A stretch of 54,673 nucleotides of DNA from a virus (Duplodnaviria; Caudoviricetes). A program made the translations under genes and the position numbers. Position 1 is the stretch's first letter. Each line of letters opens with the position of its first letter. Under the pieces are notes generated by a model that worked only from the letters and a program-made list of their open reading frames with translations, searched no databases and was not told the origin of the DNA. Shown in pieces: positions 4,222 through 20,224 of this stretch. The stretch is taken from positions 1 through 54,673 of IMG/VR virus record IMGVR_UViG_3300009026_000012, one strand, 5' to 3'.

Positions 4222-4228
4222 TCCGGCA

Positions 4229-5163: not shown

Positions 5164-5164
5164 C

Positions 5165-5395: not shown

Positions 5396-5649
5396 CCCTC
5401 GCTGCTTTTCTTAGCCGGGCAAAAGTGCAACCCCGCGCTACGGCCAAACAAGGCACCGCACTGGCACCGCTTACCACCCCCAGAAAGGGACCATACGTAT
5501 GCTTTTACCTCCTCCATGCAGAAAGGGCAGTCGAACCAGATAACCCGGCTAGAGGGAGGCTCTACGGCGTCGCTGTGCACGGTGTAAAGCCGGCGCTCCA
5601 CCTTGTCGGGGTTTTGCGCGGCATACTCAAAGCTCATTTTTTTGGGCAT
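5392..5649 (-). CDS. Zn-ribbon hypothetical protein
   Basis: CPFC...CQCG; GAGGAGG RBS. Confidence 0.65.
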   Translation of the reverse strand: MPKKMSFEYAAQNPDKVERRLYTVHSDAVEPPSSRVIWFDCPFCMEEVKAYVWSLSGGGKRCQCGALFGRSAGLHFCPAKKSSEG

Positions 5650-5957
5650 ACGTCCTCCTCTAAAGCATCGCCCACACGGCGGTGGAGCTCAGCCTTCCAT
5701 TTTCGGCTAATATGTTCCGCCACGGCCACGGGGGTGGGGGTTCCGCCGTTTAGGTCTGCGTAGTCTTGGCTAGAAAGGTTCTCTAGTAGCTTGTAGCTCC
5801 CTCTACTACTCCGGAAAAGCCCCACCAACATGAGCCCCGGCAAGTTAGACGGGGAGGTTAGGCCCAGTTGCCCGTACCCCATATTTTTGCTCACTCGCGC
5901 GAGGATCTCCCCCGCGTTGCGGTAGTCCTCGTATCCTCCTGTTATTGTTCTGGGCAT
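5634..5957 (-). CDS. Hypothetical protein
   Basis: Start moved to MPRTITGG with GGGAGG RBS. Confidence 0.55.
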   Translation of the reverse strand: MPRTITGGYEDYRNAGEILARVSKNMGYGQLGLTSPSNLPGLMLVGLFRSSRGSYKLLENLSSQDYADLNGGTPTPVAVAEHISRKWKAELHRRVGDALEEDVCPKK

Positions 5958-6235
5958 ACGTAAGCCTCCCACAGGATGGTGCAAACGACCCTCCAAAAAC
6001 TTAGCGTTATAGTTATGGGGCGCGTTGGCCCCTCCCCTATGCCTATCCAGCCGGCGCGCTTCCATTCCTCCAAGAGCGAGCCCTCCCTCCGGCTCACCAT
6101 GGAGCGGTCTAGCTGTTTGCTGTTTAACATGAGGTGTTGCACGTAAGGCATGAGCCGAAGCTCTTCGAGGGTTATCTCGCGCCCCAGCTTGGCGACGGCG
6201 ATAGCTTGTATCTCTTTCGTTAACTGTCCGCGCAT
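5942..6235 (-). CDS. Hypothetical protein
   Basis: Start moved to MRGQLTK with GGAGGT RBS. Confidence 0.65.
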   Translation of the reverse strand: MRGQLTKEIQAIAVAKLGREITLEELRLMPYVQHLMLNSKQLDRSMVSRREGSLLEEWKRAGWIGIGEGPTRPITITLSFWRVVCTILWEAYVCPEQ

Positions 6236-6281
6236 GGCGCACCTCCGATAAAAAAGTCCCCCGTCCGTGGGGGTGTGAGTG

Positions 6282-6461
6282 TTATATGTAGTTGCGCTTG
6301 GAGCGTAGAGAGAGGTGATTCTCCCGGGCCTCAATCGTCGAGCGGGTAGGGCTGCGCCCAGCTATGCGCTCGGGGTAACACCCTTGTAGGATGTTTTGGC
6401 GGTTAACTTCGGCGGCGCGTTGGCCCAGTCTGTAGGGTTTATTTTTCTTGGACTTGCTCAT
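6282..6461 (-). CDS. Small basic hypothetical protein
   Basis: MSKSKKNK start with AGGAGGT RBS. Confidence 0.55.
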   Translation of the reverse strand: MSKSKKNKPYRLGQRAAEVNRQNILQGCYPERIAGRSPTRSTIEARENHLSLRSKRNYI

Positions 6462-6473
6462 GGTGTACACCTC

Positions 6474-6653
6474 CTAGGTGTGGTTGGGTTCGGCAATCGA
6501 GAAGCGTATCTCCGGGACCAAGTCCCCCGCCTCGTTCCGGACGTAAGTAGCGCTAATTTCGCGGATGGCTTCATGTGTGCGCCAATCTAGGCCCTCTAGG
6601 GCAGTTTTAACCCCTAAGCCTAAGTCTAACGCGGTCTCTTTATTAACTCCCAT
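6474..6653 (-). CDS. Hypothetical protein (first gene after promoter module 1)
   Basis: ATG follows the repeat-encoded GGGAGCACGACA. Confidence 0.65.
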   Translation of the reverse strand: MGVNKETALDLGLGVKTALEGLDWRTHEAIREISATYVRNEAGDLVPEIRFSIAEPNHT

Positions 6654-6741
6654 TGTCGTGCTCCCGTTTCGTTGTTGTTGGGAGTATTGTACTCTTGTTG
6701 GCGGTAGTGTCAACAAGTATTTTACAATCTTTTTTGATCGG
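6654..6741 (-). promoter_or_regulatory. Repeated promoter/leader/RBS module, copy 1
   Basis: A-rich upstream tract, TTGACA (6713-6708), 16 bp, TACAAT (6691-6686), leader CAACAACAACGAAACGGGAG. Confidence 0.85.
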
Positions 6742-7210
6742 TATATATGCCCGGGTCGTACATGTCGAGGGTGCCGAGCTTCGTCGCGGAAGGCTCGAAC
6801 GTCTTCGGCACTCCGTTCTCTAGCATGTAGAAGATACGCTTAGCGGCGCCCCTTGGGGTGTTGTCCTCCTCCGCCCATCGCGACTCAAAACACCACTCCC
6901 ACACGGGCTCGTACACCCTAGCTCCGAAAAACACCTTGCTGTACCGGTCCCACGTGAGCCCGTCGAGGTCGTCCCCGTTACCTATGCCCGCTGCAGGGCC
7001 ATGCCCTAGCGCACACGCCACGGTGCCGCAACCCTCATACCCGTCGTTGTAGGCGGAAAGCACCCCGTTTGCCGTGCTGTTACCTTGGGCGAAATAGTAC
7101 TCCATATCGAAGTGGGTATAGTCCTCGGGCAAGTCCCATAAGTAGCGGGCTAGCTTTAAAAGGTTCTCTTTGTGCGTGTCGGTTAGCTGTAGCTCGAACT
7201 TAGTAGACAT
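6722..7210 (-). CDS. CGTVAC-motif protein, paralog 1
   Basis: Shares ENLLKLARYLWDLPE, FDME, GCGTVACAxGHGPAAG and DNTPRGAAKRIFYMLE with 10810..11229 and 17854..18264. Confidence 0.85.
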   Translation of the reverse strand: MSTKFELQLTDTHKENLLKLARYLWDLPEDYTHFDMEYYFAQGNSTANGVLSAYNDGYEGCGTVACALGHGPAAGIGNGDDLDGLTWDRYSKVFFGARVYEPVWEWCFESRWAEEDNTPRGAAKRIFYMLENGVPKTFEPSATKLGTLDMYDPGIYTDQKRL

Positions 7211-7592
7211 CGACGGCCTCCAGTGTTTTGGTTTTCATGTTAAAGCGGCACGTATATTGCACGGACTCCCAGCGCCCGCCCAACGTCTTGAACTCTACGT
7301 CCCCCCCACCGATAAAAAATGCCCCCTTAGCCCAGCTCACCTCTCTAACGAAAGTAGGCTCTAGTGCGCCCACCCACCGCGCGCCGAATTTTGCGCGGGC
7401 TTCGACTTGGACGAAGCACTCGCGGTCGGCACCCGAGGAGGTGAAGGCCTCCAGAACGTGCACCGGGTGGAGCTCGTCTACCAATGTGGCCGAACCTGTC
7501 ACCCCCGAAAGGGCGAGCACTACCACTAAGCCGAGGAGGCAGCACGGACCGGCAAAATCGCCTAGGCCCATAAATCTATATTTAGCTATCAT
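7200..7592 (-). CDS. Hypothetical protein with N-terminal hydrophobic segment
   Basis: LLGLVVVLALSG segment; overlaps neighbours. Confidence 0.55.
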   Translation of the reverse strand: MIAKYRFMGLGDFAGPCCLLGLVVVLALSGVTGSATLVDELHPVHVLEAFTSSGADRECFVQVEARAKFGARWVGALEPTFVREVSWAKGAFFIGGGDVEFKTLGGRWESVQYTCRFNMKTKTLEAVDVY

Positions 7593-7821
7593 TGGTAAGT
7601 ACCGTGTTGTCTGTTATGCGTGTGATTAGCGGGGGGGCTTCGGCCAAACGTACGCGCTTAGGAGCCCCGTAGGCCTCCGCCGCTGCTTCGTTACGGATTG
7701 CGAGGCATTCCATTAGATTGCCCGTCATAACGCACCGAGCGCCGTCGTAGACGCCGTGCGAGCAACTAGGCCCGCGCATTTCTTCGACGGGCAGGGGTCG
7801 TACTTCGTATAGGTATCTCAT
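7582..7821 (-). CDS. Hypothetical protein
   Basis: 79-aa ORF, GGAGG RBS, ATGA overlap. Confidence 0.6.
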   Translation of the reverse strand: MRYLYEVRPLPVEEMRGPSCSHGVYDGARCVMTGNLMECLAIRNEAAAEAYGAPKRVRLAEAPPLITRITDNTVLTNDS

Positions 7822-8069
7822 TGGCCCACCTCCACTAGGTTGAAGTCTGACTCATCGAAACACACTAAGGTGGGCGCGCCCGTTGTCGTGTGGTCCCCCG
7901 AGATCTCATATAAGTAGGTAAACTCGGCGGCGCCTTTGTGCGTGACTCGGGCCTTTGCGGCCACATCGTTGGCCCACGCTTTTACGCGGTGCGGCTCTTT
8001 AAGGTGCCGCCCCATGTAGTCCTCTAGGCTACGCACCCCGCTAGGGCTCAAACCTTGTATTTGTTTCAT
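7818..8069 (-). CDS. Hypothetical protein
   Basis: Start moved to MKQIQG with GGAG RBS. Confidence 0.55.
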   Translation of the reverse strand: MKQIQGLSPSGVRSLEDYMGRHLKEPHRVKAWANDVAAKARVTHKGAAEFTYLYEISGDHTTTGAPTLVCFDESDFNLVEVGQ

Positions 8070-8226
8070 CGTTTGCGTTCTCCGTTTTCTTGTTTTGATG
8101 TTCGGCCACAGCGGCGAGAAATAGGTCCGCGTGGAGCTCTTCGCGGAACCCGGCGACGACTCGGCCATCTTCGTAGATGAACCAGCCCCCGCCCCCGCGC
8201 TGCTTATTTAAAGAACGCGCCACCAT
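8041..8226 (-). CDS. Hypothetical protein
   Basis: 61-aa ORF in packed operon. Confidence 0.5.
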   Translation of the reverse strand: MVARSLNKQRGGGGWFIYEDGRVVAGFREELHADLFLAAVAEHQNKKTENANDETNTRFEP

Positions 8227-8375
8227 CCTGCGCGCTCCCCGATAAGTACGTCGCTAGGCTTAACCAAAAGGCCTATGTTTTCCACGGCCTCCTCAAAGGA
8301 CTGGAGTAGCTCTATGTCGAACACTGCTAGCTCGCCGGTGTTTTCGGTTGGTACTGTTATCGTCATAGTTGTCAT
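8208..8375 (-). CDS. Small hypothetical protein (55 aa; first gene after module 2)
   Basis: Hand translation MTTMTITVPTENTGELAVFDIELLQSFEEAVENIGLLVKPSDVLIGERAGWWRVL after the repeat RBS. Confidence 0.6.
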   Translation of the reverse strand: MTTMTITVPTENTGELAVFDIELLQSFEEAVENIGLLVKPSDVLIGERAGWWRVL

Positions 8376-8380
8376 TTTTT

Positions 8381-8821
8381 CTACTCCCGTTTCGTTGTTG
8401 TTGGAGCTATTATACCGTTGTTGGCGGGAGTGTCAACAAGTATTTTACAATCTTTTTTGATTGCGCCCACCCCCAATATGGCCGCCACTTCTCGGAGCTG
8501 CTCTACGCTAGGCGTGTCTTTTCGGTTGCCCGGCCACGAGTGTATGTACAGTTTAGTGCGCACGGCGTTGGCGATGAGCTTCGACTCTTCGTACTCTTGG
8601 TAGTCTTGCTCGTTCGCAAAAATCTGGTAGTTTGACGAGTAGCCCCACTTAGGCACCCACGAGGATATGTGCACCGGCACCGGCTCGGCACCTATACCGC
8701 GCTGCAGGTAAAAAAACTTAGTCCCTACTTTGTGTACTTCTATCGGCCCCGTAATGTGCTCGAATCCGGGCGCCCCGACGATGTAGAGGGTCTCCCCTTC
8801 TTTCGGCCTGTATGGTCTCAT
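8381..8821 (-). CDS. Hypothetical protein whose C-terminus reads through module 2
   Basis: 146-aa ORF; last ~26 codons are the promoter repeat. Confidence 0.6.
   Translation of the reverse strand: MRPYRPKEGETLYIVGAPGFEHITGPIEVHKVGTKFFYLQRGIGAEPVPVHISSWVPKWGYSSNYQIFANEQDYQEYEESKLIANAVRTKLYIHSWPGNRKDTPSVEQLREVAAILGVGAIKKDCKILVDTPANNGIIAPTTTKRE
8384..8461 (-). promoter_or_regulatory. Repeated promoter/leader/RBS module, copy 2
   Basis: TTGACA (8436-8431), 16 bp, TATAAT (8414-8409), same leader. Confidence 0.85.
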
Positions 8822-8973
8822 TGGTAAAGCCCTCTTATAAGATCCGCGTACACCCGGCCTCTAGGCCTAAAAGCGCGCTGTCTGCGGGTCGTGCGTGTTA
8901 TGTCGTTTTGTCGGGGGGTCATGGCCGCGTGCTGCTTTCGGTACGCTTTGCGCAGCTCTAGTACGTCATTCAT
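8818..8973 (-). CDS. Small basic hypothetical protein (51 aa)
   Basis: Hand translation MNDVLELRKAYRK...RGLYQ; overlaps both neighbours. Confidence 0.5.
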   Translation of the reverse strand: MNDVLELRKAYRKQHAAMTPRQNDITRTTRRQRAFRPRGRVYADLIRGLYQ

Positions 8974-9223
8974 GGCTATAAACTCCTTCGATTGTTATCG
9001 GGCGGGCTTGTGAAAGTCTGAGGCTCACCTCGTCGTGTACGGCGACCACCTCGACGGAGTACCCGTAGGGCAGACGAAGCCCGGCGAGCGCGTCCCCCAT
9101 TTCGGCCATTGCCCGGCGCGTTCCCCCGAGGCGTTGCGCTATTAGGGCGTAGCACTCCCGTGCCTCCCGTCGGCAATTTATACAGCCGCCGTACAGTATC
9201 TTGCCGTGGTGACATGTAGGCAT
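8966..9223 (-). CDS. Hypothetical protein
   Basis: 85-aa ORF, TAATG coupling, N-terminal CHH/CINC. Confidence 0.55.
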   Translation of the reverse strand: MPTCHHGKILYGGCINCRREARECYALIAQRLGGTRRAMAEMGDALAGLRLPYGYSVEVVAVHDEVSLRLSQARPITIEGVYSHE

Positions 9224-10002
9224 TAGCTCCCCCCCGCGTGTGCGGCTAAGTGGAGAAGGGCGTCTTTATATTCCTTCCATAGTTCAAGCGCGCCGTCGTC
9301 CATTTCGGCGATAACTTCGTCGGAGAGAGTCCGCCATTGGTCGAGGGTATGAACTTGGCACCCTACGCGCATCGTGTTAGGGGTGATCGTTACTGTCCAC
9401 GGAAAGCCCGTTAGAACTACTGGATTTTTTTCTAAAACGTCCCCGCTGACCTGCGCGGTGCCGTAGACCCACGCGTCCCCGCTGACCCGCGCGTCCCCGC
9501 AGACCTGCGCGTTACCGTAGACCCGCGCGTTACCGTAGACCTGCGCGTCCCCGCTGACCTGCGCGTCCCCGCTGACCCGCGCGTCCCCGCAGACCTGCGC
9601 GTTACCGTAGACCCGCGCGTTACCGTAGACCTGCGCGGTGCCGTAGACCTGCGCGTCCCCGCAGACCCACGCGTCCCCGCGAACCCACGCGTCCCCGCTG
9701 ACCTGCGCGTCCCCGTAGACCCGCGCGGTGCCGTAGACCTGCGCGTCCCCGCTGACCTGCGCGTCCCCGCTGACCTGCGCGTCCCCGCTGACCTGCGCGC
9801 CCCCGCTGACCTGCGCGCCCCCGCTGACCTGCGCGTTACCGTAGACCCACGCGTTACCGTAATGGGTCAGGTTCTCCATAGACTCCACCCATCCGCCTAA
9901 CTCGCCTTCTTTCACGTTAGCGAAGTCGATGCACGCGCGAATTCGGTGCAGGATCTTGCCAACGTGCTCTTTGGTTTCTTCTGTTAGCTCATACTTTTGC
10001 AT
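9223..10002 (-). CDS. Hexapeptide-repeat (left-handed beta-helix-like) protein
   Basis: MQKYELT...GELGGWVE N-terminus, >20 AxVxG[DN] repeats, C-terminal RVGCQVH domain; start moved to 10002. Confidence 0.8.
   Translation of the reverse strand: MQKYELTEETKEHVGKILHRIRACIDFANVKEGELGGWVESMENLTHYGNAWVYGNAQVSGGAQVSGGAQVSGDAQVSGDAQVSGDAQVYGTARVYGDAQVSGDAWVRGDAWVCGDAQVYGTAQVYGNARVYGNAQVCGDARVSGDAQVSGDAQVYGNARVYGNAQVCGDARVSGDAWVYGTAQVSGDVLEKNPVVLTGFPWTVTITPNTMRVGCQVHTLDQWRTLSDEVIAEMDDGALELWKEYKDALLHLAAHAGGS
9440..9860. repeat. Degenerate 18-bp coding tandem repeats
   Basis: Units such as gacctgcgcgtccccgct; boundaries approximate. Confidence 0.85.
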
Positions 10003-10172
10003 TAGCTCCCCCCCAGTATTGCTATTAAAAAACTCAATAAGGCGGCATAGCACGCCACAACAACGAGCGCAAACACCCCTAGCGCCCCCCTCTTGCTCAG
10101 CCCTCGCACCCGGCTGCCTGTGCCCAGCGTGAGAGCGGCGAACAGTACCAGCACCCCCACCACGGCTAACAT
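10002..10172 (-). CDS. Small two-TM membrane protein (56 aa)
   Basis: Hand translation MLAVVGVLVLFAALTLGTGSRVRGLSKRGALGVFALVVVACYAALLSFLIAILGGS; TAATG coupling. Confidence 0.55.
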   Translation of the reverse strand: MLAVVGVLVLFAALTLGTGSRVRGLSKRGALGVFALVVVACYAALLSFLIAILGGS

Positions 10173-10390
10173 GAGTTCACCAAGCGGATAGCTTCGCCCG
10201 GCCCTAACACGTGGCCGGTCTCCTCTTCAAAGGCGTGGACCACGGCGAAAAGGGCCGCCGGGCTTTGGTCGTCCAACGGTACGAAGGCCGTCACTTTTTG
10301 GGATATCTTAATCCGTAGGGGGTCGGTTAGCCGGACCTTCGCGCGCGCCTCCACTTTTCCCAAAAAGCAGAGCACTTGGTAGGTGTTCAT
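10166..10390 (-). CDS. Hypothetical protein
   Basis: 74-aa ORF, ATGA overlap. Confidence 0.55.
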   Translation of the reverse strand: MNTYQVLCFLGKVEARAKVRLTDPLRIKISQKVTAFVPLDDQSPAALFAVVHAFEEETGHVLGPGEAIRLVNSC

Positions 10391-10569
10391 GTTGCTAGCT
10401 GAGCGCGAGCCCAGCGGTGTGCGGCGGGTTTACGGGCGAACTTCCGAACGCCTAGGACCTGCTCCTCGCCACTACTGTGCAATCGCACAAAGGTGGCACG
10501 GATCTTGCCGTCGTTTTTGGATATCTTAACCACCTTAGTTTGAGTGGCTTTTCTTAATACTTCCCACAT
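10387..10569 (-). CDS. Small basic protein resembling 18277..18450
   Basis: Shared IS.N.DG....VR....GEE.V....F....AA pattern. Confidence 0.6.
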   Translation of the reverse strand: MWEVLRKATQTKVVKISKNDGKIRATFVRLHSSGEEQVLGVRKFARKPAAHRWARAQLAT

Positions 10570-10571
10570 GG

Positions 10572-10739
10572 CTACGCTCTCCAGAGATCCGCCTCGGCCT
10601 TACATTGGCCTAGCTTCTCTTCGTCGCCAATGCTGTGGAAGTGCTCCAAGCGTTGGCATAGGTTAAAAATTGCTTTTTGTTCGCGGGCGGTTTTAGACGC
10701 CGCTAAGGTTCTGAGTTCCGCGATTACTGAATATGGCAT
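10572..10739 (-). CDS. Hypothetical protein (first gene after module 3)
   Basis: MPYSVIAE start after the repeat RBS. Confidence 0.65.
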   Translation of the reverse strand: MPYSVIAELRTLAASKTAREQKAIFNLCQRLEHFHSIGDEEKLGQCKAEADLWRA

Positions 10740-10748
10740 TTTTTTCTG

Positions 10749-10829
10749 CTCCCGTTTCGTTGTTGTTGAGCTCATTGTACTATTGTTGGCGGGAGTGTCA
10801 ACAACTATTTTACAATCTTTTTTGATCGG
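10749..10829 (-). promoter_or_regulatory. Repeated promoter/leader/RBS module, copy 3
   Basis: TTGACA (10801-10796), 16 bp, TACAAT (10779-10774). Confidence 0.85.
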
Positions 10830-11229
10830 CATAAATATCTGGGGTCCAGCCGCTCCGTGGGGACCTGCGCTCCAGCATGTAGAAGATACGCTTAGCGGCA
10901 CCCCTTGGGGTGTTGTCTTTCTGGCGCCAAGTATCCGAAAAGCACCAAAGCCATTCAGTGGAGTGCCCCGGAAGGCCGAAAGCCTCTAGGGAGTACGAAT
11001 ACCACCCGGCCACGTTGTCGGATGGCTTAACCCCCGCAGCAGGGCCGTGGCCCAGCGCACACGCTACGGTGCCACAGCCCCCGGGTCTTTGTGCGTTTTG
11101 CGGGGGGCAGTGCCCTATAGGGTCCGGTCCATCGAAAAAGGTCTCCATATCGAAGTGGGTATAGTCCTCGGGCAAGTCCCACAAATAGCGGGCTAGCTTT
11201 AAAAGGTTCTCTCTGTGCTTTGCTTCCAT
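10810..11229 (-). CDS. CGTVAC-motif protein, paralog 2
   Basis: Same conserved blocks as paralogs 1 and 3; AGGAG RBS. Confidence 0.85.
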   Translation of the reverse strand: MEAKHRENLLKLARYLWDLPEDYTHFDMETFFDGPDPIGHCPPQNAQRPGGCGTVACALGHGPAAGVKPSDNVAGWYSYSLEAFGLPGHSTEWLWCFSDTWRQKDNTPRGAAKRIFYMLERRSPRSGWTPDIYADQKRL

Positions 11230-11247
11230 TGTCTTGCTCCTGTTTCG

Positions 11248-11463
11248 TTAGTAGCGCACCATAGGCGCGCCTAAAAAGTTGACGATATCCCCGCGCACTT
11301 TCACCCGTAGGAGCCCGCGCATACGGAGCCGCTGCAGTTCGCGCAACGCTTGCCCCTTCGCAGCCCGCTCTATGAGAGTGTGGCCGGTATCCTCAATCGG
11401 TTGGAACGCCCGTTCCACTTTACGCGATATAGGCCCCCCGAATTTTAGCTCCTCGTTTATCAT
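11248..11463 (-). CDS. Hypothetical protein
   Basis: Start moved to MINEELK; ATGA overlap. Confidence 0.5.
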   Translation of the reverse strand: MINEELKFGGPISRKVERAFQPIEDTGHTLIERAAKGQALRELQRLRMRGLLRVKVRGDIVNFLGAPMVRY

Positions 11464-11726
11464 GCTGGGCCCCCCGCCATCAGCCACAGTTGTGTTAAAA
11501 GCTCGTTTGCGGGTTGCCGCTGCATACTGCGGAACACCCGCCCGTCCAGCCTCCACACGATACTCTCGTCGCGGGTGTCCGCGCTTCTAGCTCCCGGCGG
11601 CGTGTTGTCGGGGTGGAGCGCTCGGCTCCAGAAAAGCGCCTCGCATTTTCGGACGAAAGCCGCCGCCCTACTGGACCCCGGGGATATGCCCTCGATACGG
11701 ATCTCTAGGTCTCTTAAGTGTGCCAT
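11460..11726 (-). CDS. Hypothetical protein
   Basis: 88-aa ORF, GGGAGG RBS. Confidence 0.6.
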   Translation of the reverse strand: MAHLRDLEIRIEGISPGSSRAAAFVRKCEALFWSRALHPDNTPPGARSADTRDESIVWRLDGRVFRSMQRQPANELLTQLWLMAGGPA

Positions 11727-11747
11727 TGTCCCCCTCCCGGGGCGCGA

Positions 11748-11996
11748 CTAGCGCGCTATTGCTTGGGCTAAGTATTTAAAAAAGTGCATGACGTCCCCGT
11801 TCTTAAAATCAATCATTACTAGGGTTTTTCTGATCTGGTCTTGTTCGTGCTTTGGAGCTATAAGGATGTGCTCTACGACCGTTTCTAGTGTCATAAAATT
11901 AGTCCCGCTAGGGCCTTCTACGATGATCTCCGAGCCCATGCTTATGCCGTCCTTCTCTTCGATCAAGTTATTTAGGTATGTAGAAATGTTGCTCAT
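11748..11996 (-). CDS. Hypothetical protein (first gene after module 4)
   Basis: MSNISTYL start after the repeat RBS. Confidence 0.7.
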   Translation of the reverse strand: MSNISTYLNNLIEEKDGISMGSEIIVEGPSGTNFMTLETVVEHILIAPKHEQDQIRKTLVMIDFKNGDVMHFFKYLAQAIAR

Positions 11997-12068
11997 TGTC
12001 GTGCTCCCGTTTCGTTGTTGTTGAGCCCATTGTACTCTTGTTGGCGGTAGTGTCAACAACTATTTTAC
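11997..12068 (-). promoter_or_regulatory. Repeated promoter/leader/RBS module, copy 4
   Basis: TTGACA (12056-12051), 16 bp, TACAAT (12034-12029). Confidence 0.85.
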
Positions 12069-12424
12069 TCTGGCACGTAAAGTTTGTCGTGCGGCGGGAG
12101 TAGGAGCTCTCCGTTCTCGTCAACCTCAATAAGGAACAGCTGGTCCTTTTCGGTAAACGCCGCACGTATTCGGAGGATCTTTTCGTGTGTCGTGGGGGTG
12201 AAGCTAAATACTCTTAGCGTCTTGGTCTCGCGAAAACGGCCGCCCCCTATGTGCTCTAGCATGTATATGCCTAGAGTATACCGACGGGCCTCCATTTTCG
12301 CTAAGTCCGCCTTTAGTGCTGCGATCTCAGCGAGTAGGGCCGTGGTCTCCCGGTCGTGTCTTTCTATCATTTTGAAAAGTTCCGCTTCGTTCTCTTTCAC
12401 TAACTTAACTATTTGGTCTTGCAT
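12065..12424 (-). CDS. Hypothetical protein with N-terminal coiled coil (single-gene cassette between modules 5 and 4)
   Basis: MQDQIVKL start after the repeat RBS; its TAA lies within module 4. Confidence 0.7.
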   Translation of the reverse strand: MQDQIVKLVKENEAELFKMIERHDRETTALLAEIAALKADLAKMEARRYTLGIYMLEHIGGGRFRETKTLRVFSFTPTTHEKILRIRAAFTEKDQLFLIEVDENGELLLPPHDKLYVPE

Positions 12425-12431
12425 GGCCTTG

Positions 12432-12497
12432 CTCCCGTTTCGTTGTTGTTGAGTTAATTGTACTCTTGTTGGCGGGGGTGTCAACAAGTATTTTACA
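12432..12497 (-). promoter_or_regulatory. Repeated promoter/leader/RBS module, copy 5
   Basis: TTGACA (12484-12479), 16 bp, TACAAT (12462-12457). Confidence 0.85.
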
Positions 12498-12558
12498 GTG
12501 TTAAAGCCGAGCCACAGGCTCCCTCCCCGCAGTTAAGCGGCGTCTAGTGAGTAAGGAC

Positions 12559-12598
12559 ATTGTACTCTTGTTGGCGGTGGTGTCAACAAATATTTTAC
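12559..12598 (-). promoter_or_regulatory. Repeated promoter module, copy 6 (no leader/RBS)
   Basis: TTGACA (12586-12581), 16 bp, TACAAT (12564-12559). Confidence 0.8.
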
Positions 12599-12604
12599 GC
12601 ACAT

Positions 12605-12634
12605 AAAAAAAGCGGCTTTTTAGGGCCGCCTTTT
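12605..12634 (-). terminator. Intrinsic terminator
   Basis: Minus strand AGGCGGC-CCTAAAAA-GCCGCTT followed by T run, just downstream of 12654..13079. Confidence 0.75.
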
Positions 12635-12653
12635 CGTCGTTCCCCGCAGGGTG

Positions 12654-13079
12654 CTACCTGTTGCGCAGGTAGGCCACTATTGCGGTTATGAGCTCCACGA
12701 CGGGAAACCCCCAACGAACGCCGATATAGTAAACCCATGCGCGAGTCTTGCCCATGCCATAGCGGCGAGCGGTGTCTCTCATAATGCGGTCATATATGCG
12801 ACGGTTCGAACGAGGCAAGATACCAAGCTCCATGAGCTGGTATAACCCATCATGGACGCCGGAACCTTCTAGGAACTGGTCGTCCGGGACGTAGTTCGCC
12901 CCGTTCCACGCGTAGCGTGGCGCGAGCATGATTTGCTTAGGCGTTACGTATACGAACTCGTTACCCGCTGCCTCCAGCCCGTGAGGGAGGGGGTTCTCGG
13001 ATAGCGTTACCCGGAAAGGCTTGTCTATAATCAAATAACGGTACTTTCCAGACTGTAGTTGTAAGCGTAAAGGCTGCAT
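12654..13079 (-). CDS. DUF1353-like protein
   Basis: Y.WNGA...S.VHD.LY...D...RA..YY.GVR.G pattern. Confidence 0.6.
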   Translation of the reverse strand: MQPLRLQLQSGKYRYLIIDKPFRVTLSENPLPHGLEAAGNEFVYVTPKQIMLAPRYAWNGANYVPDDQFLEGSGVHDGLYQLMELGILPRSNRRIYDRIMRDTARRYGMGKTRAWVYYIGVRWGFPVVELITAIVAYLRNR

Positions 13080-13080
13080 G

Positions 13081-13875
13081 TTACTGCTCTCGGTTGTGCG
13101 GACTTAACTGCCTAGGGCTTCCCCCGCCATTGTGGGGGGCCATGTGCCCTAAGCGCTCCGCCGCTTCATTGTGCACGAACCCGGCACACGTTGTCCATAG
13201 CTCGTCATTACCCTCTGCACTTTCCACGTACTTGTGGAGCTCCATGCAAATGAAGGCCATGTCCGCTCGATAACGGACACGGTCTTGAGTATTGCGGTCC
13301 TCCAGCTTTTCAACCTCGAACCTCATAGCACGGTCTACCCGGCGCCCGGAGCGGAAAAAATCCCAAGGAATAGCTACGCCTAGCTGCACGGAGTTAGTGC
13401 GGCCTAGGACGTCGTTGTCATCCGTTTGGCCCTGTACGTAAAAAGTGCTTATGCTCTTACTCGCCGAGCCTACCCGGGTCTCGCCAAAGCGAACCCCCCG
13501 GAACTGAGTGCGCTCGATGTGGTTGACTACATTTCTATTTGACGTGTCAACAGTAGCCCCGCGCATAGTGGAAAGATCAATATCATTGTTGACGCTAGGG
13601 GCGTCGATATCAATGCCCACGTTAGCCACAGAATTACCGCTATTATTGACTTCCGAGGCTCCTCCAGCACCCCCCGCGCCACCCAGCGCCGTAGCGTTAG
13701 ACAGTGCTCCCGCACTAGCGTTAGAACTGGAATTTGAATTCGCAATAGCTTGGACATCGATATCGGTCTCCTCTTTAGGCTCCGGGCAATTGCCGTGATG
13801 CTGGCACCCAGTAGCGTGGGTTAGCCCTGCGAAGCAGAGCGCAAAAAGTAAAGTAAAAATGTGTAGCAGTTTCAT
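13081..13875 (-). CDS. Putative exported protein
   Basis: Signal-peptide-like MKLLHIFTLLFALCFAGLTHA; Ser/Asn/Gly-rich linker. Confidence 0.6.
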   Translation of the reverse strand: MKLLHIFTLLFALCFAGLTHATGCQHHGNCPEPKEETDIDVQAIANSNSSSNASAGALSNATALGGAGGAGGASEVNNSGNSVANVGIDIDAPSVNNDIDLSTMRGATVDTSNRNVVNHIERTQFRGVRFGETRVGSASKSISTFYVQGQTDDNDVLGRTNSVQLGVAIPWDFFRSGRRVDRAMRFEVEKLEDRNTQDRVRYRADMAFICMELHKYVESAEGNDELWTTCAGFVHNEAAERLGHMAPHNGGGSPRQLSPHNREQ

Positions 13876-13890
13876 GGTTGTAGTCCTTTT

Positions 13891-14193
13891 TTAGTGTGTT
13901 TTGTTAGCGCGTTGTGCGGTGCATCTTGGGCAGTCGCAAAGCTCCGCGTTGCGTATTAGTTCCGCGAGGAGCTCCCCGGGCGTGGTGGCCTTTTTCTCCG
14001 GCTCTGGAGGTTTGGCCGCTTCGCGTATCTGCTCTGCGGCCTTTTCTAGCGCGAGTACGAGTGCGCGCTCCCCCCCGACGGCTATCACGTCCGCAAGGAG
14101 CCTGCTGTCTATCTGCATTTCTAGCCCTAGCTCTATGCCGCCTCTTTCCACCTTCGAGGAGGTTCGTTTGATCTCTAAAATTGTGTTGCCCAT
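13891..14193 (-). CDS. Hypothetical protein with C-terminal CDCPRC
   Basis: MGNTILE start after CAACAAGAACGGGAG, a degenerate copy of the repeat leader. Confidence 0.65.
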   Translation of the reverse strand: MGNTILEIKRTSSKVERGGIELGLEMQIDSRLLADVIAVGGERALVLALEKAAEQIREAAKPPEPEKKATTPGELLAELIRNAELCDCPRCTAQRANKTH

Positions 14194-14228
14194 GGTGTTG
14201 CTCCCGTTCTTGTTGGTTGGTTGAAAAC

Positions 14229-14768
14229 TTAGTCCCCGCTCCTCACGGCTCTGGGGGTGCTGCGTAACGACACGCCCCGGGCGGCGAACCACCAAGAGAA
14301 AGCCATAACGGCGAGAAATATAATTTGGTGCGTGGTGTATGAGTAGAGCGTCATTAGCTCGGCCACAGGTAGGGATGTGACACCCCCGACGAGTCGGCCT
14401 ATAACGAAGTGTATCCAAAAGGCATACCCTACAGATATCACGGTTAACAGTGGGCGGACCCATGACTTAGCCGCGTCCATTTTGCTACCGCCGTCCGTTA
14501 GGGATGCGACGAAGCCCTCCGCCTCTTTTAGATCAATGGCGACGTTTCCCTCGGCCTCGGCTAGGTCGATGTTTTTATCCACCATCAAAACTTGCTGTTG
14601 ATGCTCTAGCGCTAGCTCTTGGAGATCTAGGGCGCGCATAGCGGCTTTGTGATCGTTGTCTATTTTACGTTGGCGCGAGTCCTGCCACTTTGTGACAATC
14701 CCGCAGGCGCCTCCTATGATGGCCCCAAAGCCACCCGTCCCCATGAGGGACATGATTGTGTCCAGCAT
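14229..14768 (-). CDS. Putative holin (3-TM/GTA-holin-like)
   Basis: N-terminal Gly-rich TM, coiled coil, SWVRPLLT TM and C-terminal WWFxxR motif. Confidence 0.6.
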   Translation of the reverse strand: MLDTIMSLMGTGGFGAIIGGACGIVTKWQDSRQRKIDNDHKAAMRALDLQELALEHQQQVLMVDKNIDLAEAEGNVAIDLKEAEGFVASLTDGGSKMDAAKSWVRPLLTVISVGYAFWIHFVIGRLVGGVTSLPVAELMTLYSYTTHQIIFLAVMAFSWWFAARGVSLRSTPRAVRSGD

Positions 14769-14769
14769 A

Positions 14770-15180
14770 TTAGTGTTCTCCGCTTTGCGTATGTGAGGGG
14801 GCCGCTTGTATGGGCCTGCAGTGCCCACAGCCCGGCGTTTCCATTCTAGGGGTCCAGCACTTAGAGCACACACCGTCGGCATCCCACAGCCCCGGGAATA
14901 GCTCCGGGTTATACGGGAAGCCAGCATCCCCTTCGGAAGCTATTCGGAGCGCCACGCACGCCACCTGAATGGCTTCGGCTCGGACGCTTAGGTCCGTGGC
15001 GCCCTTTTCGGGCTCGTGTTTTTGGTGGAGTAGCGCCTGTGCCAACTCCCCAACCTCCTCGGCTAGGGCGGCTAGCAAGTCCTCGTTTTTTGGGAATTTG
15101 GCCCTAGCTAGGCCCAACTCCCTAAAAAGATCGACCGCCGCTAATTGTGTTAAGCGCTCCAGCTTTTTACTTTCTGGCAT
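14770..15180 (-). CDS. MazG-like nucleotide pyrophosphohydrolase with C-terminal Cys motifs
   Basis: LAEEVGELAQAL...EAIQVACVALRI (ExxE...ExxQ). Confidence 0.65.
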   Translation of the reverse strand: MPESKKLERLTQLAAVDLFRELGLARAKFPKNEDLLAALAEEVGELAQALLHQKHEPEKGATDLSVRAEAIQVACVALRIASEGDAGFPYNPELFPGLWDADGVCSKCWTPRMETPGCGHCRPIQAAPSHTQSGEH

Positions 15181-15181
15181 A

Positions 15182-15586
15182 TCAATGTTCTCCGAAGATA
15201 TTCAACTCGAAAGGCCCGCGAGCGGATAGCTCTCGGAGTTTTACTAGGGCGGACATGCTACTCAAAACCGCCGCCGCGCCCCCCAATTTTCCGGGCCTAA
15301 GCCCTACAAGTATGCACCCCTTAGTATGTTCTACTAGGTTACCGTTGTGGACGAGAATACCCCCCCTATCCGGTACGGCTAAAATGTGCCAAACATCCCG
15401 ATACTTACCGGAAGCGCTGGACTTGATAAAAACCGCTTGGTACTTCCCGGCGGGTATACACGAAACATTGCGCGCGTTGTCTTTCCATGGGCGCTCCAGC
15501 GTGTACAGGACCTCTCCCCCAATGAAGAGGGCCCCACGCGTGTAGCTGGGGCAGCCTGCGTACCTAAGAAGTGACGCTTTTAGCAT
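15182..15586 (-). CDS. DUF5675-family protein, candidate endolysin
   Basis: TLERPW..N....SCIPAG.Y...ILVH.GN....T.GCILVG. Confidence 0.75.
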   Translation of the reverse strand: MLKASLLRYAGCPSYTRGALFIGGEVLYTLERPWKDNARNVSCIPAGKYQAVFIKSSASGKYRDVWHILAVPDRGGILVHNGNLVEHTKGCILVGLRPGKLGGAAAVLSSMSALVKLRELSARGPFELNIFGEH

Positions 15587-15974
15587 CGTCCGCCTCGGCC
15601 TTTTCTGCGGCTTTTAGCGCTTTCCGGTAGTGTGTTAGAGCATTAGATAAGGTCTGCACATCCGCGCGGGTGGCGTCTAAAGCCTCCCGGTTACGCGCCA
15701 CGGCGTCGGAGAGCGCATCCTTAGCCATGTAGGGAGCGTTATACTCCGCCACGTGGTTGCGGATGGCTTCGTCTAGCGCCGCCCTAACGCTGGGGAAGTC
15801 CTTAGACTTGGCGTGTTGGTCCGAATGTAGGACCTCTCCCCGGTGCACTAAAACGCCGCACGCTCCGCCCTCGGCCGCTTGGTCTTTGTGAAAGCGGAAC
15901 GCTTGCTCTAAAAAATCGAGGCGTATGCGGTCCTGCTGTAGTCGGTCTATCTCGTCTTGGCTTAATTGTTGCAT
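15564..15974 (-). CDS. Hypothetical protein
   Basis: 136-aa ORF, AGGAG RBS, DRIRLDFLE motif. Confidence 0.65.
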   Translation of the reverse strand: MQQLSQDEIDRLQQDRIRLDFLEQAFRFHKDQAAEGGACGVLVHRGEVLHSDQHAKSKDFPSVRAALDEAIRNHVAEYNAPYMAKDALSDAVARNREALDATRADVQTLSNALTHYRKALKAAEKAEADDAKSVTS

Positions 15975-15984
15975 GTGTTGGCTC

Positions 15985-16296
15985 CTAAAGCGCTCGCAAT
16001 ACGCGCGCGCGCAGTTTTGGGGGAATCGACTCTATAGCCGGGTGGCGCGTGGCTATTGCCTCGGCTAATACGGCTAGGTTCTCCTCCTCGATAGCGAACT
16101 CGACCACAGCGGTGCGGAGGCCGTCCATGTCGCCGAAATAGTGGTTTATGCTCCCGTTTGCGGCTTTGCTTTTCTCCGCCACGGTATTGCGTTTCATGTT
16201 CTGGAGCCCGACATTCTCCGCTAGTGCTAGCGCGGCCGTGAGTATCTCGCGGCTACGGGCTTCCGGTTTTAACCGTCGTATCTTTCGCTCGGTCAT
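15985..16296 (-). CDS. TetR-like HTH transcriptional regulator
   Basis: REILTAA..LA...G.....R..VA.......GSINHYF; start moved to MTERK. Confidence 0.75.
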   Translation of the reverse strand: MTERKIRRLKPEARSREILTAALALAENVGLQNMKRNTVAEKSKAANGSINHYFGDMDGLRTAVVEFAIEEENLAVLAEAIATRHPAIESIPPKLRARVLRAL

Positions 16297-16772
16297 GTTA
16301 CTTTTTCCCCTGTTGAGAATCTCGCGAGGCCCCCATGGGCCTGCGTTATTTCTAAAAATTTCTTTTGTGCCTTTTCCCGGGGGGTTCCCGTATAGACCCA
16401 CCCTTCCGGCTTAGTTTCCACCGCAGTGAATTGCCCGAAGAGCGCGCCCACCATGCCCGGCGTTACTACTATGGGGGTGATCCCTACTAAGTCGCTAGAC
16501 TTAACCACCGCGTTGACCTCTTTCGAGTCATTCGCGAGACCGTAGCGGATAAAATTGCCCCGGTTATCAGTACAGGCCCCCACATTGTTGCGCCATAATA
16601 CCCCACCATTGGCGGCGGCGTCAAGACGTACCCGCGCCGAGACGGCGGCCTCGCTTTTCCCCCGCGTATCGTGAGGCAGAGGGGGGCGATACCCGGCGCC
16701 GAGAATGTCGCGCAGAGCGTGAAGTGCTACGGGCGCCACGCCATACGCGGCGGCCCAATCCTCAAGAGACAT
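16293..16772 (-). CDS. VRR-NUC domain nuclease
   Basis: LWRNNVG...RYGL...SSDLVG...AVETK...QKKFL (PD-(D/E)xK); start moved to MSLEDW. Confidence 0.8.
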   Translation of the reverse strand: MSLEDWAAAYGVAPVALHALRDILGAGYRPPLPHDTRGKSEAAVSARVRLDAAANGGVLWRNNVGACTDNRGNFIRYGLANDSKEVNAVVKSSDLVGITPIVVTPGMVGALFGQFTAVETKPEGWVYTGTPREKAQKKFLEITQAHGGLARFSTGEKVT

Positions 16773-17325
16773 AAGGCTCCCTTCCCGCCTGCGCGCCAAA
16801 AACACAAGAGCGCTCCCAGTGAGGGTCCCCGGGTTTTTGAGCCCGATAGTACACCCGCTCCGCGTTCCACCCCTCACCCTCGGAACTTGACTCTAGCCAC
16901 GGAAAGCCTGTGCGTTCTGTTTTTAGCCACCCCCAGCCCTTCTCCACGCCGTCAACCGTAACCCGTGGCCGGTGTATGAATAAGGTCCAAGTCTCGGGCA
17001 CGGTTTTCACTATGCGGTGGAAAAGGTTGCTAGGTATCCGGCTAAACCACCGCACTGTCTGCCTCTCGTTAACCACCCCCAGCGCTCCAGAGAGCCCGGT
17101 AGTGACGTCCTGCTCATACTGCCCGGCGAGAACAAAGGAGCACGCGTTCCATGGGTGGTCGTGGGTCTCTTCGTCCCCGTCACACCCTACGAAGCGGTGG
17201 AGGTATACGCGAAACCCGAAGAGCTCGGCCACGAAGTAGCGCTCTAGGTACGGCTCCCCGGGGGAGCGTTGTATCAATCGGCACGGCATCCGGGCGGATA
17301 TTTTAAAAAGTATTTTTCTTAACAT
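16762..17325 (-). CDS. Cupin-like hypothetical protein
   Basis: YLHRF...D....HDHPW...S..L.G.Y...FHRI...WTLF. Confidence 0.6.
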   Translation of the reverse strand: MLRKILFKISARMPCRLIQRSPGEPYLERYFVAELFGFRVYLHRFVGCDGDEETHDHPWNACSFVLAGQYEQDVTTGLSGALGVVNERQTVRWFSRIPSNLFHRIVKTVPETWTLFIHRPRVTVDGVEKGWGWLKTERTGFPWLESSSEGEGWNAERVYYRAQKPGDPHWERSCVFGAQAGREPYVS

Positions 17326-17630
17326 TTTTCTATCTCCTTCAATAGTCGGCGCTCTTCGCGCCGTAGCTCTTTTGAGGCTATAACGGCCTGTTTGGCGTCA
17401 AACCTTACACGGTACAGTAGGCTCTCCAACCGTTGCCGGGTCTCTTCTGGCTCTTCTGGGACCACGGCGTAGAACTCCGCCTCCACGTCGCCGTGGCGCT
17501 CCCAAAGGCGTATCTTTGCGGACGGGTACTTCTCTAGCACTTTCGCTATCACCTCCGCCACATCGGCAAGGGCCGCCCCGTCGTCGAAAACTTCCCCGCC
17601 GGGTATCTCTAATATCTTATTCTGTCTCAT
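17319..17630 (-). CDS. Hypothetical protein
   Basis: 103-aa ORF overlapping neighbours. Confidence 0.6.
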   Translation of the reverse strand: MRQNKILEIPGGEVFDDGAALADVAEVIAKVLEKYPSAKIRLWERHGDVEAEFYAVVPEEPEETRQRLESLLYRVRFDAKQAVIASKELRREERRLLKEIEKC

Positions 17631-17850
17631 CTAGGGACTCCATCAATACGCGCAAATTCTCTGCGAGGAGCTCGGATTCGGTTCGGCACACCGGGTCGAA
17701 CTTCTCGTCCGCATCCCAATAGAACCCACACCGAGGGCACTCGCCCCCGCCTTGCGGCGTTGTTGTTTTTTGGCAAATTGGAGCGCTCGGCTTTCTCTGC
17801 GCCCTGCCTACACCTTGTACGTATACTTGCCCTTCGGTTGCTTTTATCAT
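17617..17850 (-). CDS. Small Cys-containing hypothetical protein
   Basis: C...ECPRCG..WD...C; GAGAGG RBS. Confidence 0.55.
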   Translation of the reverse strand: MIKATEGQVYVQGVGRAQRKPSAPICQKTTTPQGGGECPRCGFYWDADEKFDPVCRTESELLAENLRVLMESLDETE

Positions 17851-17853
17851 GTT

Positions 17854-18264
17854 CTAAAACCTCTCTTGGTTGGCGTAGCTTTCTAGGTTCCATACACTTG
17901 GGGGTGCGCCGTTCTCTAGCATGTAGAAGATACGCTTAGCGGCGCCCCTTGGGGTGTTGTCTTTCCGGCTCCATCGCGCGTCAAAACACCACTCCCACAC
18001 GGGATCGAGCACCCTAGCTCCGAAAGCCTCGGAGGTGTAGTGGCGCCACCCGACGTAGTCGGAGGGCTTAATCCCCGCCGCAGGCCCGTGCCCGACGGCA
18101 CACGCCACCGTGCCGCACCCCGTGGGCAGCTCTCCGCTCCTCGGGGGCCGGAGAGCCCCGGCCACGTTGAAATAGTATTCCATATCAAAATGGGCGTAGT
18201 TCTCTGGCAAGTCCCACAAATAGCGGGCTAGCTTTAAAAGGTTCTCTTTGTGTTTTGCTTCCAT
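17854..18264 (-). CDS. CGTVAC-motif protein, paralog 3
   Basis: Same conserved blocks; RBS GGGAGCACGACAATG identical to the repeat leaders. Confidence 0.85.
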   Translation of the reverse strand: MEAKHKENLLKLARYLWDLPENYAHFDMEYYFNVAGALRPPRSGELPTGCGTVACAVGHGPAAGIKPSDYVGWRHYTSEAFGARVLDPVWEWCFDARWSRKDNTPRGAAKRIFYMLENGAPPSVWNLESYANQERF

Positions 18265-18276
18265 TGTCGTGCTCCC

Positions 18277-18450
18277 CTAGTTAGAAATTTTTGCGATGTA
18301 CGCGGCGGTGGACTTCTCTGCAGCCTTACGGCTCGCAAAATGGCGGCCTTTGTAGCCGTGGGTTACGTTTTCTTCTCCGTCCCGGTCTACACGAACCACT
18401 AGGGCGTAGAAAGTGCCGTCTCTGTTTTCGCTTATTCGTGCTTCGTACAT
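18277..18450 (-). CDS. Small protein (57 aa; first gene after module 7)
   Basis: Hand translation MYEARISENRDGTFYALVVRVDRDGEENVTHGYKGRHFASRKAAEKSTAAYIAKISN. Confidence 0.7.
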   Translation of the reverse strand: MYEARISENRDGTFYALVVRVDRDGEENVTHGYKGRHFASRKAAEKSTAAYIAKISN

Positions 18451-18516
18451 TGTCGTGCTCCCGTTTCGTTGTTGTTGGAGCTATTGTATCATTGTTGGCG
18501 GAGGTGTCAACAACTA
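18451..18516 (-). promoter_or_regulatory. Repeated promoter/leader/RBS module, copy 7
   Basis: TTGACA (18510-18505), 16 bp, TACAAT (18488-18483); -35 contains the helicase stop. Confidence 0.85.
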
Positions 18517-20141: not shown

Positions 20142-20159
20142 TTTATTTTTTTAGCCTTG

Positions 20160-20202
20160 TTGACAGTCCCGCCATAGTAGGGTTTAATGGCCGCCACGTC
20201 AA
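20160..20202. promoter_or_regulatory. Overlapping oppositely oriented sigma70 promoters
   Basis: Plus: TTGACA 20160-20165, 17 bp, TTTAAT 20183-20188. Minus: TTGACG 20202-20197, 17 bp, TACTAT 20179-20174. Confidence 0.7.
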
Positions 20203-20224
20203 CCAAACTAAGGAAAAAATAGCC

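Follow-up and report, generated by a model that had tools for sequence, protein, structure and literature searches.

Introduction

The virus record IMGVR_UViG_3300009026_000012 raises the question of what holds together a set of near-identical promoters dispersed among small early genes: a common regulatory function alone, or also a part in moving those genes. The window, by which we mean the whole stretch of DNA analysed, is this entire record (54,673 bp, 100% complete according to CheckV), and the locus in question is the 14.5-kb interval between its helicase and primase genes, which holds about 43 small genes, mostly ORFans, and seven copies of a promoter module of 75-90 nucleotides (nt). 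The phage is an uncultivated, lytic marine myovirus that is not T4-like. We report that the array is best read as an example of the known PeSL-type design of early promoter cassette, and not as a new principle; we also favour, with modest confidence, the reading that these cassettes served as joints for past recombination.

A promoter module repeated seven times

The core of the module, TTGACAC-N3-CGCCAACAA-N3-TAYAAT, is present in seven exact copies (m1 to m7), all of them on the minus strand (Table 1). Searched as TTGACACNNNCGCCAACAANNNTAYAAT with up to three mismatches allowed, it returned seven matches, every one exact; across the whole record there were no forward and seven reverse copies, a reversed-pattern control returned none, and none of 100 shuffled sequences contained any match. 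Successive module starts are separated by 1723, 2365, 1255, 428, 102 and 5924 nt. All copies combine a TTGACA -35 box with a TACAAT or TATAAT -10 box over a spacer of 16 nt, and in a sigma-70 scan of positions 3500-21000 the modules were the top seven matches (one at 12/12, six at 11/12). Judged from these boxes, the modules are very likely early promoters for the host sigma-70 RNA polymerase, and we infer that they fire early.

Alignment of the copies resolves the module into blocks. A GTAAAATA block is found in six of the seven copies and contains a TAA that, in three of them, is the stop codon of the upstream gene; TTGTTGACAC, CGCCAACAA with an invariant C ahead of it, and TAYAAT are found in all seven. 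The 19-nt leader AACAACAACGAAACGGGAG is exact in six copies, and the same six, which we call full modules, continue with GGGAG and, 7-9 nt further on, an ATG with an open frame; m6 has neither the leader nor these elements. Three copies (m1, m2 and m3) have a further 17-21 nt upstream in common, ATCAAAAAAGATTGTAA. The arms TTGTTGACAC and CCGCCAACAA, separated by two nt, make up a 22-bp near-palindrome that occurs in seven exact copies, only in modules, against an expectation of 0.05.

No substitutions at all are seen in the 10-nt left arm and the 9-nt right arm of the palindrome (7/7) or in the 19-nt leader (6/6). Variation is free at the centre of the palindrome (2-3 nt), in the 3 nt ahead of the -10 box and the 6 nt behind it, and in the 7-9 nt from the ribosome-binding site to the ATG. 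Every conserved block except the right palindrome arm corresponds to a known promoter or translation-start element. Since the intervening positions have diverged, the likeness of the modules appears to have been kept by selection and not by recent copying. Transcription usually starts about 7 nt past a -10 box, so that the leader would begin at approximately +1. The module is a composite cassette running from an A-rich, UP-like stretch with the upstream TAA through a consensus -35 box, the palindrome, the -10 box, the leader and GGGAG to the ATG, in which the palindrome fills the -35 region and the spacer and the C/A-rich leader would begin at about the transcription start.

The pattern that the initial annotation had described is borne out by these results: seven near-identical promoter modules, a 16-bp spacer in all of them, a copy at 12559 that is promoter only, different cargo behind each copy (the six genes directly following full modules show no mutual similarity in an all-against-all BLASTP of the 43 early open reading frames, ORFs), and an upstream TAA at the same repeat position in copies 1, 3 and 4, where it terminates g33, g19 and g15, the first two being paralogs. 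The coordinates it gave are the low-coordinate (start-codon) ends of the modules. Its pattern stands; its description overlooked the minus strand, the 22-bp palindrome, two half-modules and a plus-strand promoter near 20163.

Probable organization into transcription units

All called genes from 185 to 20141 lie on the minus strand, and the modules, together with two terminator-like hairpins (Table 1), outline two probable units within the early region. From its sequence, the first likely runs from m7 through g1-g14 up to the hairpin near 12610. The second likely comprises m6 and m5 ahead of g15, m4 ahead of g16-g19, m3 ahead of g20-g27, m2 ahead of g28-g33, and m1 ahead of g34-g35. No terminator-like site was found between the m5 and m1 units, and among the modules only m6 is preceded by one. 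The modules would in this way split the helicase-to-primase interval into transcription units, with m4, m3, m2 and m1 re-boosting the second. The term 'gene cassettes', applied earlier to the cargo, suits g15, the sole single-gene unit, and does not suit the others, which are operons of 2-14 genes.

Footprints of recombination in the modules

The variable blocks of the modules do not fit one line of descent: of 19 pairs of splits, 9 conflict with any single tree. The m1 and m4 copies share TAC at the palindrome centre and GAG in the triplet before the -10 box, m2 and m7 share the 6-mer AGCTCC after the -10 box, m1, m4 and m7 share the 7-mer CACGACA before the ATG, and m1, m2 and m3 share the long upstream extension. 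Because chance identity of whole 6-7-mers is unlikely, this pattern indicates that the modules have exchanged segments.

Two half-modules, consisting of ribosome-binding site, spacer and ATG only, precede g2 and g19 (Table 1), so that direct repeats of the module's 3' part lie on either side of g1 and likewise of g16-g18. A further junction is found at m2, which bears the same 17-nt tail of a family A gene (see below) as its long-type counterparts without such a gene ahead of it, and is fused out of frame to g27, so that m2 supplies the coding sequence for the last ~30 residues of g27, whose frame closes at a TAG located between ribosome-binding site and ATG. Taken together, these footprints in the DNA document past recombination at or beside the repeats, and by analogy the excision or exchange of cassettes may be ongoing.

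A paralog family associated with the modules

The products of g2, g19 and g33 are paralogs (family A) with 53-62% amino-acid identity. The family has no Pfam, PHROG or NCBIfam match, and the Atlas gives only unnamed clusters, mostly viral; in phage contigs it numbers 138 proteins at E <= 0.001, and in IMG/VR 44 loci. In m1 and m3, the 'upstream extension' coincides with the 3' end of an A gene and codes for Y-x-D-Q-K-R-L-stop, an ending also present in g2, with the variant YANQERL in a protein from another contig (P0004).

The three genes are 65-72% identical at the nucleotide level, yet have exact runs of 39-53 nt in common. Some of their tracts are free of synonymous change, and their invariant motif CGTVACAxGHGPAAG is full of synonymous changes. 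This distribution is conversion-like and is what gene conversion would be expected to leave in copies spaced 4-11 kb apart. A 154-aa protein encoded on a separate 1059-bp contig (P0003) joins a MEAK start of the g2/g19 type to a g33 body identical at 150/150 residues, the identity running from residue 13 of g33 onward; it could be a natural recombinant, arising from a deletion of ~11 kb or a short conversion, or an assembly chimera. In a tree of 26 family A proteins, g2, g19 and g33 fall into one clade with P0003, P0004 and another homolog, P0024 (98/94); the tree does not resolve whether the three window copies are one another's closest kin.

Arrays of A genes are also found on other contigs. 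At positions 5140-7650 of one locus (L055), six tandem copies with a period of 404-416 nt are arranged without intergenic modules. Another locus (L054, 4190-7670) holds seven copies and four conserved, promoter-like intergenic modules of ~70 nt, one of which stands ahead of an inserted, unrelated 101-aa gene that is itself followed by an A gene. This succession of module, foreign gene and A gene is the same layout as that of m7, g1 and g2 in the window.

The palindrome and its candidate regulator

Phage promoters may carry repeated operators under the control of one repressor, as with TetR-family proteins on palindromes that overlap the -35 and -10 boxes. In all seven copies the 22-bp palindrome extends over the -35 box and the spacer, and the first unit contains a gene, g7, whose product has a TetR-type helix-turn-helix. 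We therefore tentatively propose that the palindrome is the operator of a dimeric regulator, for which g7 is the only recognisable candidate; the alternative role would be that of a PeSL-style stem-loop attenuator.

Against PF00440 (TetR_N) the g7 protein scores 27.2 bits, the cut-off being 24; it also matches BetI in the latter's N-terminal part (E 6e-8) and, with E values of 0.002-0.009, eight TetR-type chains of solved structure. Its 103 residues are about half the length of the matched TetR chains (187-251 residues), in which respect it differs from known repressors of this type, and its binding to the palindrome is putative only. A search for homologs of similar length returned g7 alone, and a single-sequence AlphaFold model was poor (mean pLDDT 56). 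The proposal that g7 and g8 are a split TetR gene was unsupported, g8 being without a match in any library. Among eight loci of helicase relatives, only g6 of the 43 early proteins was matched, in three of them, and in two relatives the g6 homolog is followed by a TetR_N-like frame, which in one scores above and in the other below the Pfam cut-off. Since both keep their place beside the helicase in distant relatives, g6 and g7 do not count as accessory cargo. The earlier description of the region as accessory agrees with its richness in ORFans and with the single match (1/43) in the relatives' loci, and does not extend to these two genes.

Folding calculations gave, for plus-strand RNA of the palindrome, a stem of 9-10 bp with two G-U pairs and a 4-nt loop (-9.6 to -15.4 kcal/mol), and for sense-strand RNA a weaker stem of 6-7 bp (-6.3 to -11.5 kcal/mol). 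These stems form in six of the seven copies, m7 preferring an alternative fold. Fold z-scores against shuffles are modest, from -0.3 to -3.8 for the sense and from -0.6 to -3.4 for the antisense strand.

Searches for relatives and structural variants

Megablast of positions 6000-19000 against the phage collection returned no match, and the helicase relatives present in IMG/VR are at most 45% identical. Three of these (L008, L009 and L011) had no comparable repeat array, and a fourth, L010 (helicase 40% identical), had only a pair of tandem promoters, 125 nt apart and with an inverted repeat of their own. In IMG/VR, neither the exact core including the -10 box nor the leader was found at any locus, and a looser -35/spacer pattern was found at 36 loci, each with a single match and none with tblastx similarity to the window. 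The palindrome pattern was found at 38 loci of metagenome contigs, all lacking the -10 box and leader and lying in unrelated coding sequence. Near-identical DNA is present in three sequencing runs of marine metagenomes (word shares 0.99, 0.84 and 0.25); no RNA run is listed among those containing the stretch.

Comparison with known systems

The initial annotation had likened the modules to PeSL elements, and this likeness is upheld in every anatomical part. The portions of the PeSL study drawn on here (Arbiol et al. 2010, PMC2839356) describe elements of ~100 bp, located in ORFan-rich regions of T4-like phages and composed of an upstream stop in an AT-rich stretch, sigma-70 boxes, a stem-loop, a Shine-Dalgarno sequence and an ATG; the stem-loops contain G-T pairs and lie most often between -35 and -10. 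In those same portions, mapped crossovers fall between the -10 box and the ATG, mini-circles are detectable at ~1 in 10^5 virions, and the T4 recombination system needs less than 50 bp of homology (PMC2839356). Degraded 'half' PeSLs near indels are described in the corresponding part of a later study (Comeau et al. 2014, PMC4122927).

The modules have every PeSL part in the same order, including the position of the stem-loop and its G-T pairs, and recur in an ORFan-rich region adjoining replication genes and accompanied by degraded half copies. Their half-modules and block switches fall between the -10 box and the ATG, as PeSL crossovers do, and exchange would be expected to proceed by general recombination functions of the phage and not by an integrase. 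The differences are several. The phage is a 54.7-kb marine myovirus outside the T4-likes in which PeSLs were defined; one identical 22-bp palindrome stands at a fixed position, whereas PeSL stem-loops vary in place and are often of the GGGG/CCCC type; the palindrome forms its stronger hairpin on the antisense strand and lacks a U-run on the sense strand; the spacer measures 16 nt instead of 17 and the leader is invariant over 19 nt; and the units are mostly multi-gene.

A description as 'integron-like' had also been offered. The array does resemble an integron in being a one-directional row of gene units split by a repeated, partly palindromic element. The term nevertheless fails, as there is no tyrosine recombinase: neither an IntI-type recombinase nor attI is present, each unit has its own promoter and ribosome-binding site where integrons have a single Pc, and the exchange footprints lie outside the palindrome. 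Morons, which the PeSL study, in the part cited, contrasts with PeSLs as a gene with its own promoter and terminator added to phage genomes (PMC2839356), are alike in being small accessory genes with a strong promoter of their own between conserved genes; they have no conserved flanking repeat, whereas here a single module is present seven times and the array as a whole is bounded by just two terminator-like sites. In the haloarchaeal virus HGTV-1, according to the passages cited here (PMC3950731), a promoter box and inverted repeat precede most ORFs in one genome arm, and these PeSL-like motifs are interpreted as elements of both regulation and shuffling that occur beyond the T4-likes; the promoter there is of the archaeal TATA type, the host belongs to another domain, and the virus is likened to the present array by description only.

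Joints for recombination or co-regulated promoters

On the reading that we modestly favour, the modules are PeSL-type early promoter cassettes that also served as joints for past recombination. The repeats and the A paralog would have provided joints for homologous and illegitimate recombination that rebuilt the region, and the likely machinery would be the phage's own Gp2.5-like annealing protein and exonuclease; by analogy, the Gp2.5-like protein may work on short homology as the T4 system does. The array had been called 'recombinase-free', which is correct in that no site-specific enzyme was matched and incorrect in that these two general recombination proteins are encoded. As for recombination between modules, past footprints agree with it, and no excision, duplication or swap was seen.

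A rival explanation, somewhat doubtful and yet far from negligible, is that the modules are only a co-regulated family of early promoters, kept alike by function and having no role in moving genes; the copies would have multiplied by segmental duplication of a promoter together with an A gene, and the rearrangements would be the usual background of phage early regions. Such an origin is in keeping with conservation restricted to functional blocks, with A genes that amplify in tandem without intergenic modules in L055, and with units that are mostly multi-gene operons including some conserved core genes. Furthermore, the skeleton TTGAC..GCCA..TAYAAT is common to the modules, to a non-cassette site (the plus-strand replication promoter near 20163) and to the two tandem promoters of the distant relative L010, and since it is present in the latter, this type of promoter is older than the array. 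What a simple duplication tree leaves unexplained is the incongruent sharing of whole 6-7-nt blocks among the modules; the half-modules flanking g1 and g16-g18, the unrelated gene placed exactly behind a module copy in L054 and the P0003 chimera likewise speak against an origin by duplication alone.

Several observations count against the modules having been joints, or against parts of the PeSL-type reading. Variable positions are widely diverged, as the promoter-family explanation would have it, which indicates that the modules are not often homogenised; in 20 pairs of modules the exact identity extends over no more than 10-33 nt (the value for m5 and m6 was left out, their extraction windows having overlapped), which is short for host RecA. 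The junction at m2 lies in the tail of an A gene and not in the module core, and therefore points to an illegitimate event instead of module-by-module exchange, and P0003 could be an assembly chimera formed via a 32-nt exact repeat (length counted by hand). No close relative, of the kind in which repeat-bounded indels would show, was found in the collections searched, from which records very near the window may be absent, and the three nearest relatives fetched show no recurring palindrome, apart from the two L010 promoters. Logan contigs from the three metagenome runs contain no joints and one base difference; this absence of variants, which would also suit a plain promoter family, is weak evidence, as such contigs break at repeats and drop rare variants, so that rare deletion forms would not be visible. 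Finally, there is no U-run after the sense-strand hairpin, leaving the PeSL terminator role unsupported as such, and the link between g7 and the palindrome is conjectural.

A second rival concerns the palindrome, which would be a structural stem-loop instead of an operator, acting as an attenuator or insulator or as an intrinsic terminator of plus-strand transcripts. We consider this unlikely. The plus-strand stem with its G-U pairs and 4-nt loop is followed by UAUUUUAC in six of the seven copies, the same six that a terminator consensus scan lists as terminator-like, and PeSL stem-loops located between -35 and -10 lowered read-through in a reporter, according to the part of that study cited (PMC2839356). 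The uniform minus-strand orientation of the genes, however, leaves no obvious plus-strand transcription to stop, the sense-strand stem of 6-7 pairs has a large loop and no U-run, and the z-scores are modest; invariant arms without any compensatory change, moreover, fit protein recognition better than pairing.

A more elaborate scheme, which we regard as a long shot, would make the palindrome and the leader recognition sites, the former as DNA for g7 and the latter possibly as RNA for the ProQ-like g27. These would both time expression and channel the annealing/exonuclease system to the sites, resulting in a self-contained, promoter-borne exchange of cassettes with the A gene as default cargo, and other marine phages, such as that of L054, would have the same scheme with different module sequences. 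A site-specific cassette system, with the palindromes as attC-comparable sites for an unrecognised phage recombinase, is very improbable: an identical imperfect palindrome, foldable when single-stranded, is indeed present in all seven modules and several large proteins encoded by the genome match no family, but PF00589 (tyrosine recombinase) had no match in the genome in a search that was positive in 14 of 14 control genomes, no recombinase family appeared among the proteins put through library scans, the observed junctions (half-modules, A-gene tail, paralog chimera) lie outside the palindrome, and every unit keeps its own promoter, unlike integron cassettes.

Other genes and features of the window

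Among the 43 early ORFs, 30 have no PHROG match at E <= 0.001 and 37 no Pfam match at the thresholds used; those with recognisable products are listed in Table 1. The host-takeover or anti-defence roles suggested for the cargo in the initial annotation are speculative, most of the cargo being without a family match. The sole base difference among the metagenome contigs, at position 9682, falls in the gene of the 259-aa repeat protein, g24. Upstream of the helicase gene, promoter-like sites face each other at 20160-20205, the minus-strand site being TTGACG-17-TACTAT, for the helicase.

The virion genes are of the contractile-tail type (sheath, tube, baseplate, tape measure, portal, protease, major head protein and large terminase), and for the terminase the best tblastn matches, with an identity not exceeding 44%, come from phages of Acinetobacter, Vibrio, Shewanella and Aeromonas with genomes of 42-53 kb. 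Positions 1-15 and 54659-54673 are identical (GGGGCGAACCTAAAC); given this 15-nt identity of its ends, the 'linear' record probably closes into a circle or bears a short terminal repeat. The non-coding stretch 922-1290, between the primase gene and a minor tail gene, holds 6 of the 13 ACGTCAC copies of the window (~5 expected window-wide), as well as repeated CTTGTAGCCGCTT units and an AT-rich tract, and by its sequence resembles a replication origin of the iteron type. Near the C-terminus of the Gp2.5-like protein, seven 24-nt repeats (plus strand, 23354-23569) encode QPPAQQQY-like units by frame reading.

A tRNA-like sequence lies on the minus strand at 36690-36830, in the gap that separates the tail tube gene from the next ORF. 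Neither ARAGORN with default settings nor Rfam detected it, and with introns allowed in ARAGORN and the threshold lowered a weak call of tRNA-Arg(TCT) was obtained, carrying a 58-nt insertion at an unusual position; Rfam gave no gathering-level match across the whole window. Between terminase and portal, at 45811-51070 (minus strand), there are four ORFs (305, 120, 732 and 495 aa; three are large) for which neither PHROG nor Pfam gave a match. The minus-strand gene at 53734-54561 encodes a protein with an FtsK-gamma winged-helix domain (PHROG label FtsK/SpoIIIE-like) and is located upstream of the large terminase gene, with one 91-aa ORF between them.

Table 1. Modules, genes and other elements of the early and replication regions, in window coordinates
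Feature	Position	Strand	-35 to -10	Description
m1	6651..6737	-	6713-6686	long type; heads g34; g33 TAA stop in its GTAAAATA box
m2	8373..8460	-	8436-8409	long type; sole TATAAT -10 box; 17-nt paralog tail out of frame
m3	10737..10825	-	10801-10774	long type; upstream extension ATCAAAAAAGATTGTAA codes for C-terminus DQKRL-stop of paralog g19
m4	11994..12068	-	12056-12029	full module heading g16; g15 TAA stop in its GTAAAATA box
m5	12422..12496	-	12484-12457	full module; heads g15
m6	12559..12598	-	12586-12559	promoter and palindrome only; no leader, no ORF; 102 nt upstream of m5, tandem promoter pair
m7	18448..18513	-	18510-18483	palindrome, -35, -10, leader, ribosome-binding site and ATG of g1; helicase stop TGA inside -35 hexamer; GTAAAATA box absent
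Half-module GGGAGCACGACAATG	18262..18276	-		directly before g2; 15/15 identical to m1, m4, m7
Half-module CGAAACAGGAGCAAGACAATG	11227..11247	-		directly before g19; 19/21 identical to m1/m4/m7 (hand count)
Terminator-like hairpin and T-run	12603..12632	-		end of m7 unit, just upstream of m6
Terminator-like hairpin CCCCCACGGACGGGGG and T-run	6258..6273	-		after g35; probable end of m6/m5-to-m1 unit
Related promoter TTGTTGACAGTCCCGCCA...TTTAAT	20160..20191	+		before plus-strand replication operon; no right palindrome arm
g2	17854..18264	-		paralog A, 136 aa
g5				PHROG label cysteine dioxygenase
g6				nuclease
g7	15985..16296	-		103 aa, TetR-type helix-turn-helix
g9				DUF5675
g15	12065-12424			single-gene unit
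g19	10810..11229	-		paralog A, 139 aa, directly upstream of m3
g24	9223-10002	-		259 aa, ~24 hexapeptide (18-nt) repeats; beta-solenoid, YdcK and bactofilin family matches
g27	8381..8821	-		ProQ C-terminal-like domain, Pfam residues 1-116 of 146
g33	6722..7210	-		paralog A, 162 aa, directly upstream of m1
Primase	1288-3966	-
Helicase	18507-20141	-
Exonuclease	21037-22206	+		general recombination function of phage
Gp2.5-like single-stranded-DNA-binding/annealing protein	22724-23584	+		general recombination function of phage
DNA polymerase	23603-25939	+

Significance

Few concrete mechanisms have been proposed for the turnover of early ORFans in lytic phages, a pool from which many anti-defence genes originate; PeSL-type cassettes are among them and have so far been documented almost only in T4-like phages. 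The same part-by-part anatomy in an unrelated 55-kb marine myovirus, together with the array on a second contig, suggests that this design is a recurrent solution and not a peculiarity of T4. Being small and uniform, with seven modules, one palindrome, one leader and a marker paralog in three copies, the array would also be convenient, given a host or a synthetic reporter, for measuring the exchange of modules and for deciding whether the stem-loop serves as an operator.

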